NCBI GenBank assembly: GCA_031409335.1
Contig: JANNWY010000040.1
Location: 1-11,954 of the forward strand
Length of the DNA stretch: 11,954 bases
Direction: 5' to 3'
Source of the DNA: Chthoniobacteraceae bacterium
Lineage (GTDB): Bacteria > Verrucomicrobiota > Verrucomicrobiia > Chthoniobacterales > Chthoniobacteraceae
Positions 1 to 11,954 of the stretch are shown here, one piece after another; position 1 is the first letter of the stretch, and every line of letters starts with the position of its first letter. The position numbers and the translations under genes are program-made. Under the pieces are notes generated by a model, which worked only from the letters and a program-made list of their open reading frames with translations, did no database searches and was not told the DNA's origin.

Positions 1-866
1 AGACGCGCGGGGAGCAAGATGGTGAGCACCATCGTGAAGCCGCCGAAGATCGCGCCCGCTACGAAATACGGCGGGAAGATCGTGGTGTGCCATCCGGGAA
101 GGATGGAAGTGGCAAAGTCGAACGACACGACCGAATGAACCGAAAGCACGAGCGGCGTGGAGAGTCCCGCGAGGAGCAGGTAGGCCATTTCGTAGTGCCG
201 CCAGTTGCGGTTCGAGCCGCGCCAGCCGAGGGCGAAGATGCCGTAGAGGAAACGCGAGACACGGGACTTCGCGCGATCACGCAGGGTGGCGAGGTCGGGC
301 ACGAGGCCGGTGTACCAGAAGAGCGCGGAAACCGTGAAGTAGGTCGAGACGGCGAACACGTCCCAGAGCAGTGGCGAACGGAAATTCGGCCAGATCGCGT
401 TGGAATTTGGGATCGGCGCGAGGAACCACGCCATCCATACGCGACCGACGTGGATGCCCGGGAAAATACCCGCGCAAATCACCGCGAAAATCGTCATCGC
501 CTCGGCAGCGCGATTGATCGATGTGCGCCACTTCTGGCGCGTCAGGAAAAGGATCGCAGAAATCAGCGTTCCCGCGTGACCGATACCGATCCAGAACACG
601 AAGTTCGTGATGTCCCACGCCCAGCCCGCCGGGTGATTTTCTCCCCACACTCCGACGCCATTTGAAATCTGGTAGCCAATGCAGAACAGCCCGAACAAGG
701 CAAGCGCTGAAGTCGGGAGAAAGGCCAGCCACCACCACAGGCGTGTCCTTTCCTCGGGAATCGCGGAAACCTTATCCGTGACCCATGCAAAGCTGCGCGC
801 GTTTTGGACGAGCGGCACACGCTCCATTTCCTTCGCGGTCGTGAGAGTGACGACGGATTCAGACAT
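1..866 (-). CDS. actC: Alternative complex III subunit C (NrfD/PsrC-family quinol-binding membrane subunit), 3' end outside the window
   Basis: Not in the ORF track because it has no stop in the window. Manual translation from the ATG at 866 (TAATG overlap with the actB stop) gives [21 protein letters not shown]...[37 protein letters not shown]...[17 protein letters not shown]...[18 protein letters not shown]...[15 protein letters not shown]...[20 protein letters not shown], which are hallmark ActC motifs. Confidence 0.95.
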
Positions 867-3800
867 TACGCCTGGCCTCCATTGCTGGCACCGGTTGCGG
901 CTTCATGTTTCGGTTCGGCGTGAGGTGGGTGATGATATTTCGAGCCCTTGATGGCTTTGCCGGTCTTGTCGGCGCCGGGCATTTTCGGGTTGGGATTGCG
1001 GATGCGCGCGAGATAGGTGACGCGCTGATCGAGATGCAAATACTCGAAGAGCCGGTAGCCGCGCTCGCTTTCGAGCAGCTTCGCGACGGCACTTTCCGGG
1101 TTCTTTTTGTCGCCAAAAACGATCGCACCCGTCGGGCAAACCTGCGCGCAGGCCACGGTGAAAGTGTCCGCCGGAATCCGCGCCGGTCCCTCGTCGCGGA
1201 TCGCAACCGCCGCGGCGATTTTCGCTTCCTGGATGCGCTGCACGCAGAACGTGCATTTCTCCATGACGCCGCGCATGCGCACGGTCACGTTCGGGTTTTT
1301 GGAAAGTTTCAGCGAATCCTCCATCCCCCGCTCGCTCGTCAGATTCCAATCGCGGAGAGTGCCGATCTTGCGCTCGTTGTAATCGAAGAAATTGAAGCGA
1401 CGCACTTTGAACGGACAGTTGTTCGCGCAATACCGCGTGCCGATGCAGCGGTTGTAAGCCATCACGTTCAAGCCATCCTCGCTGTGGACCGTCGCGTTCA
1501 CCGGGCAGACGGTTTCGCACGGCGCATTCTCGCAGTGCTGACACATCATCGGCTGGGAAACCAGCTCAGGGTCGGCGTCGTTTTCGTCCGAGGACGCAAA
1601 GTAACGGTCCATCCGCATCCAATGCATTTCGCGACCTTCGATGACCTGACGCTTGCCAACGATTGGAATGTTGTTTTCCGCCTGGCAGGCGACCATGCAC
1701 GCGGAGCAGCCGATGCAGGTATTCAAATCGACCGCCATCGCCCACTGATGCGGATCGCCGAGCGGCGGATGTTTGTAAAGCGAGGCATCCGCCGGGATAT
1801 GGCCGTCCATGCCCATCGTTTTTGCGAACTTCGGAGCCGCCGTGTATTCTTCGAGCGTCGCCTCGCGAGTGATGTCCGGCCCGCGGCCTTCGAGCGTGCC
1901 GTGCTCCTGGGTGACGCCGAGTTTGTAGCTCGTGCCGGAGAGTTTCACGGTCGCGCCATTTGCGAAATACGGCGTCGCCGTCGTGCGCAAAAGGTAGCCA
2001 TTGAAACCGCCGCTGGTCATCTCCGAATCCAGGGCGAATCCCTCGGTCGTCTGGCCCACCGTGCCGACGCGGCCGGCCTTCGTGCGCCCGTAGCCGAGCG
2101 GGATCGTGATCGAATTCTCGGCGTGCCCTGGAATCACGAGAGCGGGCAGATCGAGCTTGCGATCGCCGACCGTGATTTCGATCCGCGGATATTCGAAGTG
2201 TTCCTTGAAAAAACTCGGATCGGTATTGATGCCAAGTTTCTTTGCGGTCGCGAGGCTGATCAGCGCGGCGTTATCCCACGTCAGTTTGGTGATCGGATCG
2301 GGCAGTTCCTGAAGCCAGCCGTTGTTGGCAAAACGTCCGTCATCGACCTTCGCATCGCCGACCAGCACGACTTCGTACGAGTTTTCGCCGAGCGGCGGGA
2401 TCGGGAGTTTTTCCGCGACCAGCTTGCCGACTGCCTCGCCACTGAGTGTGAGCGCGACGGGTTTCGGAGTTTCGCCCGCAATAAATCCGTCGTGAAGGAA
2501 TTTCGCCCACACTGCGGTGAAATCATTCGGCTGCACGCGCTGCTTGAAAGTTTCCTGCACCAGTTCCGGGCCGTCGGTCTTTTTCAGACCCGCGAATTTC
2601 GCAAGCACATCAATCTCCGACCATCCGCCGTAAAGCGGCAAAATCATCGGCTGCACGGAAACGTAACTGCCGTCCACCGCAAGCCCGTCGCCCCAGGATT
2701 CGAGGTAATGCGAAAGCGGCGCGTGCCAGGTCACGTGCTCGCTGGTTTCGTCCTCGTAAAATCCGACGCGCACCACGTTCGGCACCTTCTTCAGCTTCGC
2801 GGTAAAATCGAGATCGACCGGCGCATTATAGACCGGATTTCCGCTCACGATGATGATCGAGGAAAGCGATCCGTCGTTCATCCGACGCGTGACTTCCGCC
2901 AGATTAGCCGACGCCCTCGCGGGCAAATTTCCGCCCACCAAAGTCGTGCCCAGACTGCCCAGCGCCGCATTGATCGCGAACACCAGCGCCTGCACTCCCG
3001 CAGGCTGCCGCGAACCCGCAAGCACAAGGCCGCGCCCTTTGTTTGCCGCCAAATCCGCCGCTGCCACGGTGATCCACTCTCGCTTCGTCGCCGGTTTCGG
3101 AGCCGCCGCCACCAGCTTTGCGAGCGTCGCGTCGTTCGTCAGCGTCGCGATTTCCGCCGCGAATTCGATCGCCGCCGCACCGATCTGACTCGCCGGCAAA
3201 CGCAGCCGGTGATCCGCCGCGCCGCCCGTGATCGTGTAATGGTTTTCGACCGCGTAAAGGCGGTTCATCTTGTTCTCGCCACCCACCTTCCGCCGCGAAG
3301 CAAACGCCCCCTGCTCCACCACGCCGCCATCGAGCCCGATGAAATCCGCATCGAGCGAAAGAATCACGTCCGCCTTCTCGATCTGCGGAATCGCCCGCAC
3401 GCCTTCGCCGAAAGCCGCCCGCGCCGCCTCGACCGCCGCATCGTCGCCGAGCGGCTCATAGATCGCCCACAACGCCTTCGGAAATTTCTTCTCGATCTCC
3501 CCGCGCAACCGCTCGCGCGTCGGCGACGGATTGCTTTCCAAAAGAAACGCAAGCCCCGCGCCATCCCCTGCCCCGGCGATCAATTCATCCAGCGCCTTCT
3601 CAAAATCCGCCGCCGTTTTCGTCGCACCGTTCAGCTTGAAAGTCTTCGCGCGATCCGGGTCGTAAAGATCGAGGATCGAGGTCTGCGCCCAAGTATCCGT
3701 CGCGCCCTTGCTCGCCGGATGACCCGGATTACCCTCGATCTTCGTCGGCCGCCCATCGTGCGTCTCCGCCAGTAGCGGCGCATATCCGCGGCGCGTCGGC

Positions 3801-4108
3801 ATCGACGTGGTGAAAAACAACGCCTTGCCCGGAATCGACCATTCCGTTCCCTTTACGAACGGAATCAAGTGCTTCACCGGCCGCCGGCACCCCGCGAAAC
3901 TCAGCCCCGCCAGCGCCATCGACGCGCCCATCAATTGCAGGAAATTCCGGCGCGACACATCGCCGCCCTTCATCTCGGAAGCACCCTGCGGAAACTCGCG
4001 CTCCAGCCAACCGCGGAATTCCGGCGTGTCATTGAGCTGCCCGAGGCTGCGCCAGTATTTTTTACCGCTCGTCGCGGGTTCAGGATGTTGGAAGATTCGC
4101 TTGCTCAT
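866..4108 (-). CDS. actB: Alternative complex III subunit B (Tat-exported molybdopterin-oxidoreductase-like domain fused to an Fe-S ferredoxin domain)
   Basis: N-terminal YWRSL...EFP...[12 protein letters not shown]at-variant leader; [14 protein letters not shown]-terminal Cys motifs [41 protein letters not shown]...CAQVCP; RGVMEKC. Start placed at ATG 4108 (ATGA overlap with the actA stop) rather than 4117. Confidence 0.95.
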
Positions 4109-4779
4109 CGGTGGCACCCCGCGCAGTTCCCGTTCGGCGGATTCAAATGGAGTTTCTTCACCAGCTCTTCGCCGATGCGCAGTTGGGCTTCTTTTTTGGA
4201 TTCGCCCTCAAGTTGCGGCGGGATCCAGTTGAGATTCGTCACCTGATCGACCGGACGCACGTGTTCCGCCGGATTGCGATGGCATTCCAGACACCACGCC
4301 ATCGAGTGCGGCTCCGCGTGATACACCACCGGCATCTCGTTCACCTTCCCGTGGCAGCTCACGCACGACACCCCGCGATTCACATGCGCCGAGTGATTGA
4401 AATACACGTAGTCCGGCGTCTTGTGGATTTGCACCCACTCGATCGACTTGCCCGTCGTCCAGGATTCGCGCACCGGGGCGAGCTTCGGGTTCTCCTTCTG
4501 CACCTGCGTATGGCAGTTCATGCAAGTCTGCGTCGTCGGCACATTCGAGTGCGCCGCGACTTCCACGAAGCTGTGGCAGTAGCGGCAATCCATCCCGAGC
4601 TGCCCCGCGTGGATTTGATGCGAAAAATTCACCGGCTGCTCAGGCTGGTAACCGACGCGGGTGTATTTCGGCGTGAAATAATACCAGACTGCCATCGAGA
4701 CCACCGGCGTGATCAAGAGCCCGATCAGGACGAATTTGAGGGGGAGAATATTGCTCCCGCGTGGAAAGATATTCGCCAT
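4105..4779 (-). CDS. actA: Alternative complex III subunit A, membrane-anchored pentaheme cytochrome c (c3 family)
   Basis: One N-terminal hydrophobic helix, GYQPEQPVNFSHQIHAG, five CxxCH motifs (CRYCH, CMNCH, CVSCH, CLECH, CAGCH), VYFNHSAH; lies directly upstream of actB. Confidence 0.95.
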   Translation of the reverse strand: MANIFPRGSNILPLKFVLIGLLITPVVSMAVWYYFTPKYTRVGYQPEQPVNFSHQIHAGQLGMDCRYCHSFVEVAAHSNVPTTQTCMNCHTQVQKENPKLAPVRESWTTGKSIEWVQIHKTPDYVYFNHSAHVNRGVSCVSCHGKVNEMPVVYHAEPHSMAWCLECHRNPAEHVRPVDQVTNLNWIPPQLEGESKKEAQLRIGEELVKKLHLNPPNGNCAGCHR

Positions 4780-8515: not shown

Positions 8516-8923
8516 TTACTCGAAGGGATTCACCACCGGCACGCCGCAGCGCGTGAAGTCGTCCACATTGCGCGTGGCCACCGTGAGTCCGTGCAGCTTC
8601 GCGGTGGCGGCGATCATGGTGTCGGCCATGCCTACGGTGAAACCGGCGCGCTTCACTTTGTTAAAAAGTTTGCCCCACACGATTCCCGTTTCCTCCGTCC
8701 AATCCAAACAGATGGTCGTGCTCCGCAGCTCTTGAAACCACGATTCAAGATCCCGCTTTTTGAGCCCCGACGGCATCGCATCGATCCCGCGCCAGATTTC
8801 CGCCAGCACCACGGCATCGACCACGCTCTGAGCCTCGTTCCTGGCAATCCAGGCGAGCACGCGGGGCGACGGCTGCAGCTTGGTTGGCTCGCTCAGCACG
8901 TTCACGTCCACGAGGTAGTTCAT
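8516..8923 (-). CDS. vapC: Type II toxin-antitoxin PIN-domain toxin (VapC/FitB-like ribonuclease)
   Basis: 135 aa; YLVDVNVLSE, LAEIWRGI, DTMIAATAKLHGLTVATRNVDDF, VVNPFE are PIN-domain signature motifs with the acidic active-site residues. Confidence 0.92.
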   Translation of the reverse strand: MNYLVDVNVLSEPTKLQPSPRVLAWIARNEAQSVVDAVVLAEIWRGIDAMPSGLKKRDLESWFQELRSTTICLDWTEETGIVWGKLFNKVKRAGFTVGMADTMIAATAKLHGLTVATRNVDDFTRCGVPVVNPFE

Positions 8924-9174
8924 TCAAAGGGATTCCGCCAAAAGTCCGCAGTGGTTTCCCGGCGCTCCAACGGCTTATACCAGCCCTTCACCGGACAGCT
9001 CAGCAGCACATCAATGAGCCGGCGCTTGGGCTTTGCTTCATCCACGACCTTGACCCGCAGAGTGTCGCCGCCGAGGGAGTCGATCTCACAGCGTTGCCCT
9101 GGCTTGATGCGATGCTTCCGGCGGAGCTTCGCGGGAATTTCCACGGAGCCATCGGCTGAAACTTTAGTCGTCAT
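8920..9174 (-). CDS. AbrB/MazE/SpoVT-family DNA-binding antitoxin (VapB-like)
   Basis: 84 aa; MTTKVSADGSVEIPAKLRRKHRIKPGQ fits the AbrB swapped-hairpin pattern; ATGA overlap with the PIN gene. Confidence 0.85.
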   Translation of the reverse strand: MTTKVSADGSVEIPAKLRRKHRIKPGQRCEIDSLGGDTLRVKVVDEAKPKRRLIDVLLSCPVKGWYKPLERRETTADFWRNPFE

Positions 9175-10850: not shown

Positions 10851-10875
10851 AACTTAGTGGTTGACGACCTAAGTT
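10851..10875. promoter_or_regulatory. Inverted repeat AACTTAG-N11-CTAAGTT straddling the -35 box; candidate operator
   Basis: Perfect 7-bp arms at 10851-10857 and 10869-10875. Confidence 0.4.
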
Positions 10876-10889
10876 CAGAGGCTTACTTT
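10861..10889 (+). promoter_or_regulatory. Sigma70-type promoter for the leader/ncRNA/tRNA operon
   Basis: TTGACG (10861-10866), 17 nt, TACTTT (10884-10889); predicted start near 10896, just before the ATG at 10908. Confidence 0.7.
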
Positions 10890-10907: not shown

Positions 10908-11075
10908 ATGACATCAACCGGAACATATCCAAACCATTCGCAAGCGACCTCGTGGTTGCGTTGCGCGGGTATGTCCGTGCGCATTGGCAAACCCGGATTC
11001 GGGTTCGGCGTCCAGGCAACCAATACGCGGCCGAGTTCCGCGAACGAAGGCCTTACCAAGGAGGCCAGCAGGTAG
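10908..11075 (+). CDS. Putative attenuator leader peptide, 55 aa (MTSTGTYPNHSQATSWLRCAGMSVRIGKPGFGFGVQATNTRPSSANEGLTKEASR)
   Basis: First ATG after the predicted promoter; its TAG (11073-11075) lies inside the segment complementary to the 5' arm of the downstream terminator. Confidence 0.55.
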   Translation: MTSTGTYPNHSQATSWLRCAGMSVRIGKPGFGFGVQATNTRPSSANEGLTKEASR

Positions 11076-11122
11076 TTCAAGATCTGACACAGATCATCGA
11101 AATTTCGAGAACCCTGCCGGCC
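11049..11122 (+). promoter_or_regulatory. Attenuator alternative helices (anti-antiterminator and antiterminator)
   Basis: GGCCTT 11049-11054 pairs with GAGGCC 11061-11066. Alternatively GGCCAGCAGG-TA-GTTC 11063-11078 pairs with GAACCCTGCCGGCC 11109-11122 (13 bp, one A.C mismatch, 2-nt bulge). Confidence 0.7.
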
Positions 11123-11147
11123 TGAAAGCCAGCAGGGTTCTTCGTTT
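11107..11147 (+). terminator. Intrinsic terminator-like hairpin (conditional)
   Basis: AGAACCCTGC-C-GGC / CTGAAA loop / GCC-A-GCAGGGTTCT, ending in an interrupted U-rich tail (TTCTTCGTTT). Confidence 0.75.
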
Positions 11148-11159
11148 CCGGGTGATGAA

Positions 11160-11675
11160 CCAGTTTTCTAGTCGCGGCCCGATGGCCGCAAAACCAAAGC
11201 AACCAAACTGATCGACCAACACATTTGAACCACAACGTGGGCGATAAAAACCCCGCCGTCAGCGCAAACTGACGATGGGGCGGAACGCACGGCGCGGCAG
11301 CGCACTCCTACTAACGCGGAGCGCTTACCGCATAGCCGCCGGCGCGGCAATCGGTCACCAATCCAGATAAGTCCCTAGCGGAGACGCCGGTGAGTTAGTA
11401 ACCTCGCAAACGGTGGCAGCTCACGGAGTAACTGTCAAGCCAGTCAATCTTACGATGACTAGCTAGCGGATCTGTATTGTCTGATTCCTCGCCCTGACTT
11501 CTCCAGTCCAGAGGCTTCGCATGACTAACTATGTCATGCACCGGGAGGTGTGCCTGAAACACCGAAAGAACCGCCGTGAAATAATCCTGCGGGTGCGAAC
11601 TCAAGTTCCGAGTTGGCAGCGGTGTTTGTTCTTTTTTGTCGTATGCGGCGCGGGTGTCACAACCCGCGCCGCCCA
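11160..11675 (+). ncRNA. Candidate large multi-domain structured RNA(s) upstream of the tRNA array (family unassigned; context like GOLLD/ROOL)
   Basis: More than a dozen helices by eye, including nested long-range stems 11209-11215/11351-11357, 11360-11378/11463-11486, 11390-11396/11418-11424 and 11570-11574/11619-11623; GAGA and GCAA loops, AGUA motifs, G.U pairs on the + strand; no convincing protein ORF. Boundaries approximate. Confidence 0.6.
11645..11675 (+). other. Perfect 11-bp GC-rich hairpin followed by CCA
   Basis: GCGGCGCGGGT-GTCACA-ACCCGCGCCGC-CCA, 3 nt before the first tRNA. Confidence 0.8.
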
Positions 11676-11678
11676 TTT

Positions 11679-11752
11679 GCGGTCATCGTCCAAGAGCAGG
11701 ATGCCTGAACGCCAATCAGGCGATGCCGGTGCAATTCCGGCTGACCGCACCA
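11679..11752 (+). tRNA. tRNA-Gly(GCC), non-canonical
   Basis: Acceptor GCGGTCA/TGACCGC, D stem GTCC/GGAT, anticodon stem CCTGA/TCAGG with loop AC-GCC-AA (anticodon 11711-11713), T stem GCCGG/CCGGC with loop TGCAATT, A73, encoded CCA. Confidence 0.88.
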
Positions 11753-11770
11753 TTTTCAAGTACCCACAAC

Positions 11771-11844
11771 ACGGCGGGCGCCAGCTTGCGCAGCTTGGTC
11801 TCCAGAACCTTGCGGGCTCGGGGCAGCACCGAGACGCCGTGCCA
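11771..11844 (+). tRNA. tRNA-Trp(CCA), degenerate/non-canonical
   Basis: Acceptor ACGGCG/CGCCGT (A1-U72, G73, G7.A66 mismatch), D arm GCGC-CAGCTT-GCGC, anticodon arm TTGGT-CT-CCA-GA-ACCTT (anticodon 11802-11804, two U.U pairs), T arm CTCGG-GGCAGCA-CCGAG, encoded CCA. Confidence 0.75.
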
Positions 11845-11855
11845 TTTCTTCAAAT

Positions 11856-11931
11856 CGCGGGGGAGCCAGGTGGGAAGGCAGCGGCCTCATAAGCCGTCAA
11901 TGAGCGGGTTCGATTCCCGCCCCCGCCACCA
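11856..11931 (+). tRNA. tRNA-Met(CAT), initiator-like
   Basis: Acceptor CGCGGGG/CCCCGCC with C1.C72 mismatch, D arm GCC-AGGTGGGAA-GGC, anticodon arm GCGGC-CT-CAT-AA-GCCGT (anticodon 11888-11890), T arm GCGGG-TTCGATT-CCCGC, A73, encoded CCA. Confidence 0.9.
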
Positions 11932-11938
11932 ATTTCAT

Positions 11939-11954
11939 GGGCCGCTCGATCATT
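11939..11954 (+). tRNA. Probable 5' end of a fourth tRNA, truncated by the window edge
   Basis: After a 7-nt AT-rich spacer (ATTTCAT), GGGCCGC-TC-GATC-ATT fits acceptor strand, positions 8-9 and D stem. Identity cannot be determined. Confidence 0.45.

Follow-up and report, generated by a model that had tools for sequence, protein, structure and literature searches.

Residues G18 and pseudouridine 55 are near-universal textbook bases of tRNA. The locus described here raises the question of how tRNA genes that lack both can be maintained, and what such genes may serve. The window, the whole stretch of 11,954 nt that was analysed, is the entire contig C40 of its source genome (G000), and no other contig overlaps the C40 end. 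Its protein genes, identified by Pfam domains (cytochrome c, 4Fe-4S, PSCyt1/PSCyt2/PSD1, a PIN-domain ORF with an antitoxin-like neighbour, DUF1501), are unrelated to the tRNA finding. From position 10860 to the contig end runs a non-coding block that has close homologues in the same family and carries the following features:

10861 to 10889, forward strand: putative sigma-70-type promoter (TTGACG, 17 nt, TACTTT), read by eye
10908 to 11075, forward strand: leader ORF of 55 aa from ATG, from its frame and from homologous leader ORFs ending just 5' of the hairpin
11110 to 11147, forward strand: predicted attenuator terminator hairpin with U-rich tail, from fold and conservation
11237 to 11640, forward strand: conserved structured ncRNA of no named family, from an 18-homologue alignment and fold
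11283 to 11349, forward strand: small repeat of 67 nt inserted in the ncRNA, absent from most homologues
11679 to 11752, forward strand: tRNA-Gly(GCC) with A18/G19, G55/C56 and encoded CCA, from ARAGORN, Rfam RF00005 and fold
11771 to 11844, forward strand: compact tRNA-Trp(CCA), from a paired-fold comparison of 28 homologues
11856 to 11931, forward strand: tRNA-Met(CAT) with an initiator-like 1:72 mismatch and a canonical GG/TTC elbow, from ARAGORN and Rfam
11939 to 11954, forward strand: start of a tRNA-Ala cut by the contig end, matching the first bases of the Ala gene found next to Met in relatives

We propose that this block forms the 5' part of an accessory tRNA operon in which A18 and G55 replace G18 and U55 while G19 and C56 are kept. 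With a probability of roughly 0.55, this operon supplies a back-up pool of tRNAs, predicted to be switched on when ribosomes stall and to fold their elbows without the usual T-loop modifications. The elbow variant itself is real, selected and array-wide; its host operon is likely stress-induced and devoted to spare tRNAs and RNA repair, a function in translation stress that we infer from the evidence below.

An altered elbow shared by two of these genes was the claim of an earlier note. The loop letters it gave for tRNA-Gly (AAGAGCA; TGCAATT) and tRNA-Trp (CAGCTT; GGCAGCA) are those of the sequence, and the neighbouring Met(CAT) gene does keep GG and TTC. Its statement that both genes lack G18G19 and U55 has to be narrowed: G55 is present in Gly and Trp, but tRNA-Gly loses only G18 and keeps a G19 able to pair with C56. 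Likewise, AG at 18/19 holds for Gly, which numbers uniquely, and by analogy only for Trp. The tRNA-Gly gene scores 50 bits against Rfam RF00005, and the cloverleaf is its MFE fold (z -3.4). Its 7-nt D loop reads A14 A15 G16 A18 G19 C20 A21 and its T loop begins U54 G55 C56, with A18 at 11695 and G55 at 11731. The T stem is G49-C65/C50-G64/C51-G63, A31-U39 is followed by unpaired A32/A38, and the identity pairs G1-C72, C2-G71 and G3-C70 are intact (identity elements of Gly and Trp tRNAs as given in the accessible part of PMC9976931). Twelve of 13 distinct homologues of this gene are A18/G55.

Three bases of the tRNA-Gly are atypical, A32, C33 and A73. A32 and C33 should weaken decoding. A73 recurs in 11 of the 13 homologues; it occurs in 239 of 232,109 bacterial tRNA-Gly, and, in the portion of that study available, a U73A change renders Gly-tRNA about 100-fold more sensitive to DTD, the U73A tRNA having been charged with the dimeric T. 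thermophilus GlyRS (PMC6097841). G000 carries DTD and a dimeric GlyRS, and no tetrameric GlyRS was found in it. The housekeeping tRNAs of G000 keep GG and TTC in 43 of 43 cases, a count that leaves out calls on contigs C59 and C205 absent from the Rfam list. Given that this set already includes Gly(GCC) and Trp, along with three CAT genes, the window tRNAs are extras. Set against the 43 of 43, the 200 of 214 tRNAs with G55 in homologous loci (below) place the elbow observation beyond chance.

Is the altered elbow a property of two genes or of the array? A custom cloverleaf parser, which selects on stems and a 3' CC end, is blind to D- and T-loop letters and misses interrupted genes, Trp-type genes and the window's Met, returned 214 distinct tRNAs from 30 homologous loci, the window included: G55 in 200, U55 in 13 and A55 in one. 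With position 19 placed as the complement of 56, the G55 class divides into 165 A18/G55, 9 G18/G55, 9 C18/G55, one U18/G55 and 16 unassigned or ambiguous; the remainder comprises 6 G18/U55, 6 ambiguous U55, one C18/U55 and one C18/A55, and A18/U55 does not occur. Counting against strict pairing are 20 of the 200 G55 tRNAs with a base other than A at 18 (19 of them listed as G, C or U), a further 16 being unassignable. Neighbours of pattern matches, the seed tRNAs removed, gave A/G 269, G/U 31, G/G 9 and A/U 0 among 403 tRNAs of 124 genome loci (40 ambiguous U55 loops) and A/G 122, G/U 129, G/G 1 and A/U 0 among 366 tRNAs of 115 viral loci (94 ambiguous). When only 7-nt D loops, whose numbering is unique, are taken from the three sets (n=263), 182 are A/G, 65 G/U, 16 other and none A/U; because the sets share kin and may overlap, and the genome- and viral-neighbour sets were seeded with the A18/G55 pattern, Fisher values on these counts overstate. 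The cleanest case of covariation is a single orthologous gene, Leu(GAG), in which both sites switch together: among 11 variants, 6 have GG with TTC, 4 have AG with TGC, and one has G55 with neither.

The 18/55 covariation check against related arrays that the earlier note called for thus comes out in favour of its central idea, a selected alternative elbow rather than decay: hundreds of tRNAs and the Leu(GAG) orthologue covary, while stems, anticodons and encoded CCA are kept. Where it saw a change in two isotypes, the parallel change is borne out but its scale was understated, as nearly the whole array is altered. Sixteen amino acids are represented among the 200 G55 tRNAs, with Trp, Met, Ser and Tyr genes added by eye; homologues at the position of the window's Met(CAT) keep GG/TTC, and other array Met genes have G55. 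Like the canonical elbow (RF00005; G18-psi55, G19-C56, U54-A58), the array tRNAs have a cloverleaf, a G53-C61 pair (199 of 200), a purine at 57, a 19-56 pair (G/C in 69 and U/A in 5 of 78 family 7-nt loops) and a CCA end (encoded in 190 of 200). Unlike it, they have A18/G55, their 54:58 combination is free (UA 108, GG 43, CA 25, AU 16), and position 8 is often A or G. Structure is conserved in these tRNAs, and the letters read by modifying enzymes vary freely.

The Trp gene departs further, in a way that the earlier note missed, as it did the attenuator and the RNA-repair context. Neither ARAGORN nor Rfam calls this gene, and folding its sequence alone gives no cloverleaf. In the proposed layout the D stem directly follows the acceptor strand with no 8-9 linker, the D loop has 6 nt (CAGCUU), the anticodon stem has 7 bp with two mismatches, the variable loop has 3 nt, the T loop reads G54 G55 C56 A57 G58, and G73 and an encoded CCA follow. 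Thirty homologues were found in genomes and viral contigs, and two were dropped for poor register. Across the remaining 28 distinct sequences 91% of cells are paired, and 18 of 23 pairs show two-sided changes. At nt 8-11/18-21 the D stem is paired in 100% of cells, with compensatory changes, against 5.4% for the canonical D register, figures to be read with the structure having been drawn from the same 28 sequences, so that slid-register controls favour the drawn fold. D-loop C-A-G, C56 and G73 never vary and G55 hardly does, and 18 of the 28 sequences leave 7:66 unpaired. By this comparison the Trp gene is a real, conserved compact tRNA. Its AG likely plays the 18/19 role, numbered so by analogy only because the D stem sits outside the canonical register. 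The alternative that this AG is A14-G15 was rejected, since the canonical D register is unpaired and some homologues have a loop reduced to CAGC. The layout resembles that of tRNA-Pyl and mammalian mitochondrial tRNA-Ser(UCN), with which the gene shares a short linker between acceptor and D stems, a small D loop, a lengthened anticodon stem and a 3-nt variable loop, and from which it differs in its CCA anticodon, its G73, the often open 7:66 pair and an anticodon stem of 7 rather than 6 bp.

How might such an array be controlled? The leader ORF, which has no Pfam match, stops 35 nt 5' of a strong hairpin with a U-rich tail, and its last codons (about 11059-11074) are the predicted antiterminator strand. 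The hairpin has a fold z of -4.6 and is kept in homologues, its U run being full in loci L072-L077 and its tail imperfect in the window. The end of the leader ORF pairs with the 5' arm of the terminator in 24 of 24 loci listed (-10 to -22 kcal/mol), the window lying outside these but locus L035 having the same two segments as the window; antiterminator and terminator letters covary in L072-L077. We infer the layout of an attenuator: a ribosome finishing the leader ORF and standing at its stop codon would cover the antiterminator strand, favouring the terminator, and a stalled or missing ribosome would free that strand, so that transcription reads through. A TTGAC-like box recurs at the promoter spot in most homologues inspected. 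A promoter and terminator consensus scanner found nothing above chance in the window, leaving both the 10861-10889 promoter and the 11110-11147 terminator uncalled.

Between the attenuator and the tRNAs lies the ncRNA, about 340 nt long without its insert. The alignment of 18 homologues gives 46 predicted pairs, 8 of them with two-sided changes, and a 3' domain that hardly varies and contains two UGAAA T-loop-like motifs (fold z -3.2). No Rfam family was found for it. GOLLD RNA, considered for its likeness, was set aside, as RF02032 matched in none of 5 genomes at E up to 10, and the Y RNA family YrlA (RF02553) had no match on C40. The 67-nt insert has two further copies in G000.

What lies beyond the contig end has to be read from relatives. 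G000 assembles only the first three array genes and part of a fourth; no contig in G000 continues C40, and none of the other array tRNAs of relatives matched in this genome, for which 2,886 ARAGORN calls made at -ps85, mostly spurious, were discarded. Homologous arrays in L022 and L027 are co-oriented clusters with 17 to 22 ARAGORN calls, and the named records with similar arrays are largely Verrucomicrobiota, which makes that phylum the likely home; related arrays also occur in viral contigs. The order in relatives is leader ORF, hairpin, ncRNA, tRNAs and then Ro60/RlaP/RtcB/HNH, the relative G076 having TROVE (Ro60), RlaP, RtcB and HNH genes after its array. YrlA-like partial matches below the Rfam cut-off lie at the far end of the array in G076 (C10:354232-354293), there 5' of TROVE, and in G105 (C22:760131-760196). 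Homologues of RlaP, RtcB and HNH in G000 begin at an end of contig C12, so an assembly gap has likely swallowed the middle of its array, perhaps together with TROVE, for which the assembled G000 gave no match. Contigs aligning to the leader or ncRNA occur in 4 of 4 metatranscriptome runs, and in two runs they span the 3' part of the ncRNA into tRNA-Gly; contigs in two runs skip the 67-nt insert. These contigs derive from relatives and show neither strand nor ends, and they are a weak hint of transcription. A search of sequencing runs returned no run holding half of the query words.

The array would work like an L-array, with the long co-oriented tRNA cluster and the supernumerary genes of that group, from which it differs in elbow and predicted control. 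The type case is the trn operon of Anabaena/Nostoc PCC 7120, and L-arrays have been reported in Verrucomicrobia (PMC8421152, accessible text, also for what follows on this operon). Both have supernumerary clustered tRNAs beside a full housekeeping set, a linked HNH and an association with RtcB. The Anabaena array is mostly canonical, with G55 in one of 24 ARAGORN calls and in the uncalled Ile(GAU), whereas here G55 is the rule; the strict parser, requiring an encoded CC end, took only 4 Anabaena tRNAs, and that array was read by eye instead. Anabaena control is through direct repeats at the promoter (PMC8421152), against a predicted leader-peptide attenuator followed by an unnamed ncRNA here. 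By eye, the operonic Glu(CUC) has G55, and the operonic Ile(GAU) has A18, G19, G54, G55 and G58, almost the T loop of our Trp gene. In Anabaena 23 of 26 operon tRNAs are charged; Ile(GAU) gives an aminoacylated band in vivo under stress, with aberrant migration and misacylation not excluded (PMC8421152). This band is the only experimental support we found that such an elbow is tolerated. The same source, in its accessible text, describes the operonic tRNAs as unnecessary for recovery of protein synthesis, and the words 'T-loop', 'D-loop' and 'consensus' do not occur in that text. In our literature search, outside which most subscription papers lay, no description of an A18/G55 elbow swap or of a matching D/T-region selection was found. 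The Steinberg laboratory reportedly carried out in vivo selections in 2003-2004 on suppressor tRNAs whose D/T loops had been randomised, and a 2012 paper on the Anabaena tRNA cluster may mention A18/G55-type pairs.

How could an elbow fold with A18 and G55? The GNRA pair is a sheared G-A pair, and G is common at T-loop position 55 in rRNA and riboswitches. Canonically, residue 18 is inserted between T-loop bases, where a single hydrogen bond joins it to psi55, and elbow partners read the flat 19-56 pair (PMC4810234, in part). According to the available part of a preprint, the non-canonical pair of the GNRA tetraloop superimposes on the 18-55 pair (bioRxiv 10.1101/2022.11.01.514747); because it occupies the place of U55-G18, A18-G55 is a plausible substitute. 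A18 would thus intercalate in the T loop and pair with G55 in a sheared, GNRA-like manner, so that the 19-56 face stays flat and can be read by RNase P, the ribosome and the L1 stalk. With no U55, and in many cases no U54 or U8, the array tRNAs would not be substrates of TruB and related enzymes. TruB, which is present in G000, requires GUUYRANYC (PMC7912444, in part), and therefore the array tRNAs would be ignored by it. The same presence counts against the proposal, since G000 shows no evident lack of modification. The array tRNAs would mature without TruB-type modification, be recognised less readily by enzymes that rely on the T-psi-C loop and, once charged, top up translation while RtcB and Ro60 repair or clear damaged RNA. 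In its fullest form, for which we would give somewhat less than even odds, the picture is of a whole working tRNA set built on the A18-G55 T-loop of riboswitch and rRNA type, independent of modification and present in verrucomicrobial and phage arrays, including a new compact tRNA-Trp without acceptor-D linker; the set would be governed by a ribosome-stalling attenuator and co-transcribed both with the undescribed RNA of about 340 nt, in which the paired T-loop motifs may hold on to tRNA elbows, and with the Ro60/RtcB repair kit.

Could the stress-induced tRNAs act mainly outside decoding, as ribonuclease decoys or as substrates and scaffolds of Ro60, RtcB, RlaP and the ncRNA? A73, A32 and C33 of tRNA-Gly, C33 in 35 of the 214 parsed tRNAs and the distorted Trp fold would fit such a role, as would the TROVE, RtcB and YrlA-like pieces linked at the array end in G076 and G105, and a sponge was raised as an idea in the part of PMC8421152 available. 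The array resembles Ro60 (Rsr)/Y RNA/RtcB repair operons (PMC4201824, in part) in those pieces 3' of the array in relatives; unlike them, it begins with a leader attenuator and a large set of rewired tRNAs, and the window genes have anticodon arms and are complete tRNAs rather than Y RNAs. Near-complete specificities, intact anticodons, identity pairs (Gly; Trp G73) and CCA exceed the needs of a decoy, which would moreover be expected to keep the host T-psi-C loop, and we regard this role as rather unlikely. Quite improbable, in our judgement, is that the main benefit of the swap was evasion of nucleases or modifying toxins directed at the T-psi-C loop, arising from phage-host conflict, with stress control added later. 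G55 is found in 133 of 366 viral neighbours (115 loci), some viral arrays being almost all G55, but these loci were A18/G55-seeded and the share is biased; the ncRNA motif occurs in 4 viral contigs as well. Counting against escape, the cleavage sites of most known tRNA toxins lie in the anticodon loop or at the acceptor end.

Drift by neutral compensatory changes, in an array that moved horizontally, is silent and has no current role, would account for the patchy occurrence (matches in 45 of 151 family genomes, some via the small repeat alone and many incomplete) and for the broken and interrupted copies in some relatives. It is very improbable all the same: the same two-site swap runs over at least 16 specificities, and this swap, the compensatory stem changes and the conserved, covarying attenuator need purifying selection. 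Staphylococcal NP1-3 tRNA-Gly species also lack U55 and G18, like the tRNA-Gly here; they alone have lost G19 too, and have a weak T stem (A49-U65/U50-A64/A51-U63), an extra C31-G38 pair and service with Fem transferases (PMC13443448, PMC7826273, both in part). That the array tRNAs are non-ribosomal aminoacyl donors of this cell-wall-bridge kind, the parallel drawn in the earlier note, is scarcely credible, for beyond the common loss of U55 they keep G19 and a G/C T stem and span at least 16 specificities, and no FemAB transferase (PF02388) was found in G000, which is 98% complete.

With hundreds of tRNAs in which the two bases are swapped as a pair, this natural family can show directly whether tRNA structure requires psi55 and T54 or whether these bases persist only as letters read by enzymes. 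The A18/G55 tRNAs would be scaffolds that host modifying enzymes ignore, of possible use in engineered translation; the attenuator predicts induction by ribosome stalling, which bears on the role of long accessory tRNA arrays, and the Trp variant shows that standard finders overlook genes of such arrays.

Several further observations accompany the locus. On the reverse strand, window positions 1-4779 hold ordinary cytochrome c, 4Fe-4S and membrane-subunit genes (Pfam domains), a set resembling alternative complex III, and positions 8516-9174 a PIN-domain ORF with an AbrB/MazE-like partner, a VapBC-type pair inserted between the PSCyt/PSD1 and DUF1501 genes, 1.7 kb upstream of the leader ORF. 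An apparent methyltransferase/endonuclease pair lies, by eye, between RlaP and RtcB at about 75.5-77.8 kb of contig C12, a spot where relatives have another gene or none. Family Arg(UCG) genes carry a second elbow variant, G18/G55 with U19/A56 (7 cases), a compensation at 19-56. Lone A18/G55 tRNAs without array neighbours occur in records named Patescibacteria and Poseidoniales/Thermoplasmatota (loci L079-L202) and may be housekeeping copies. In relatives, array tRNAs are split by structured inserts of 50-70 nt, which lie in their D loops, T loops or anticodon regions (L022 at about 740-920, 1275-1420 and 1610-1870; also L021), one insert family being common to these tRNAs and the window ncRNA (11283-11349); the inserts are small mobile repeats or, given the linked RtcB, possibly removable introns.
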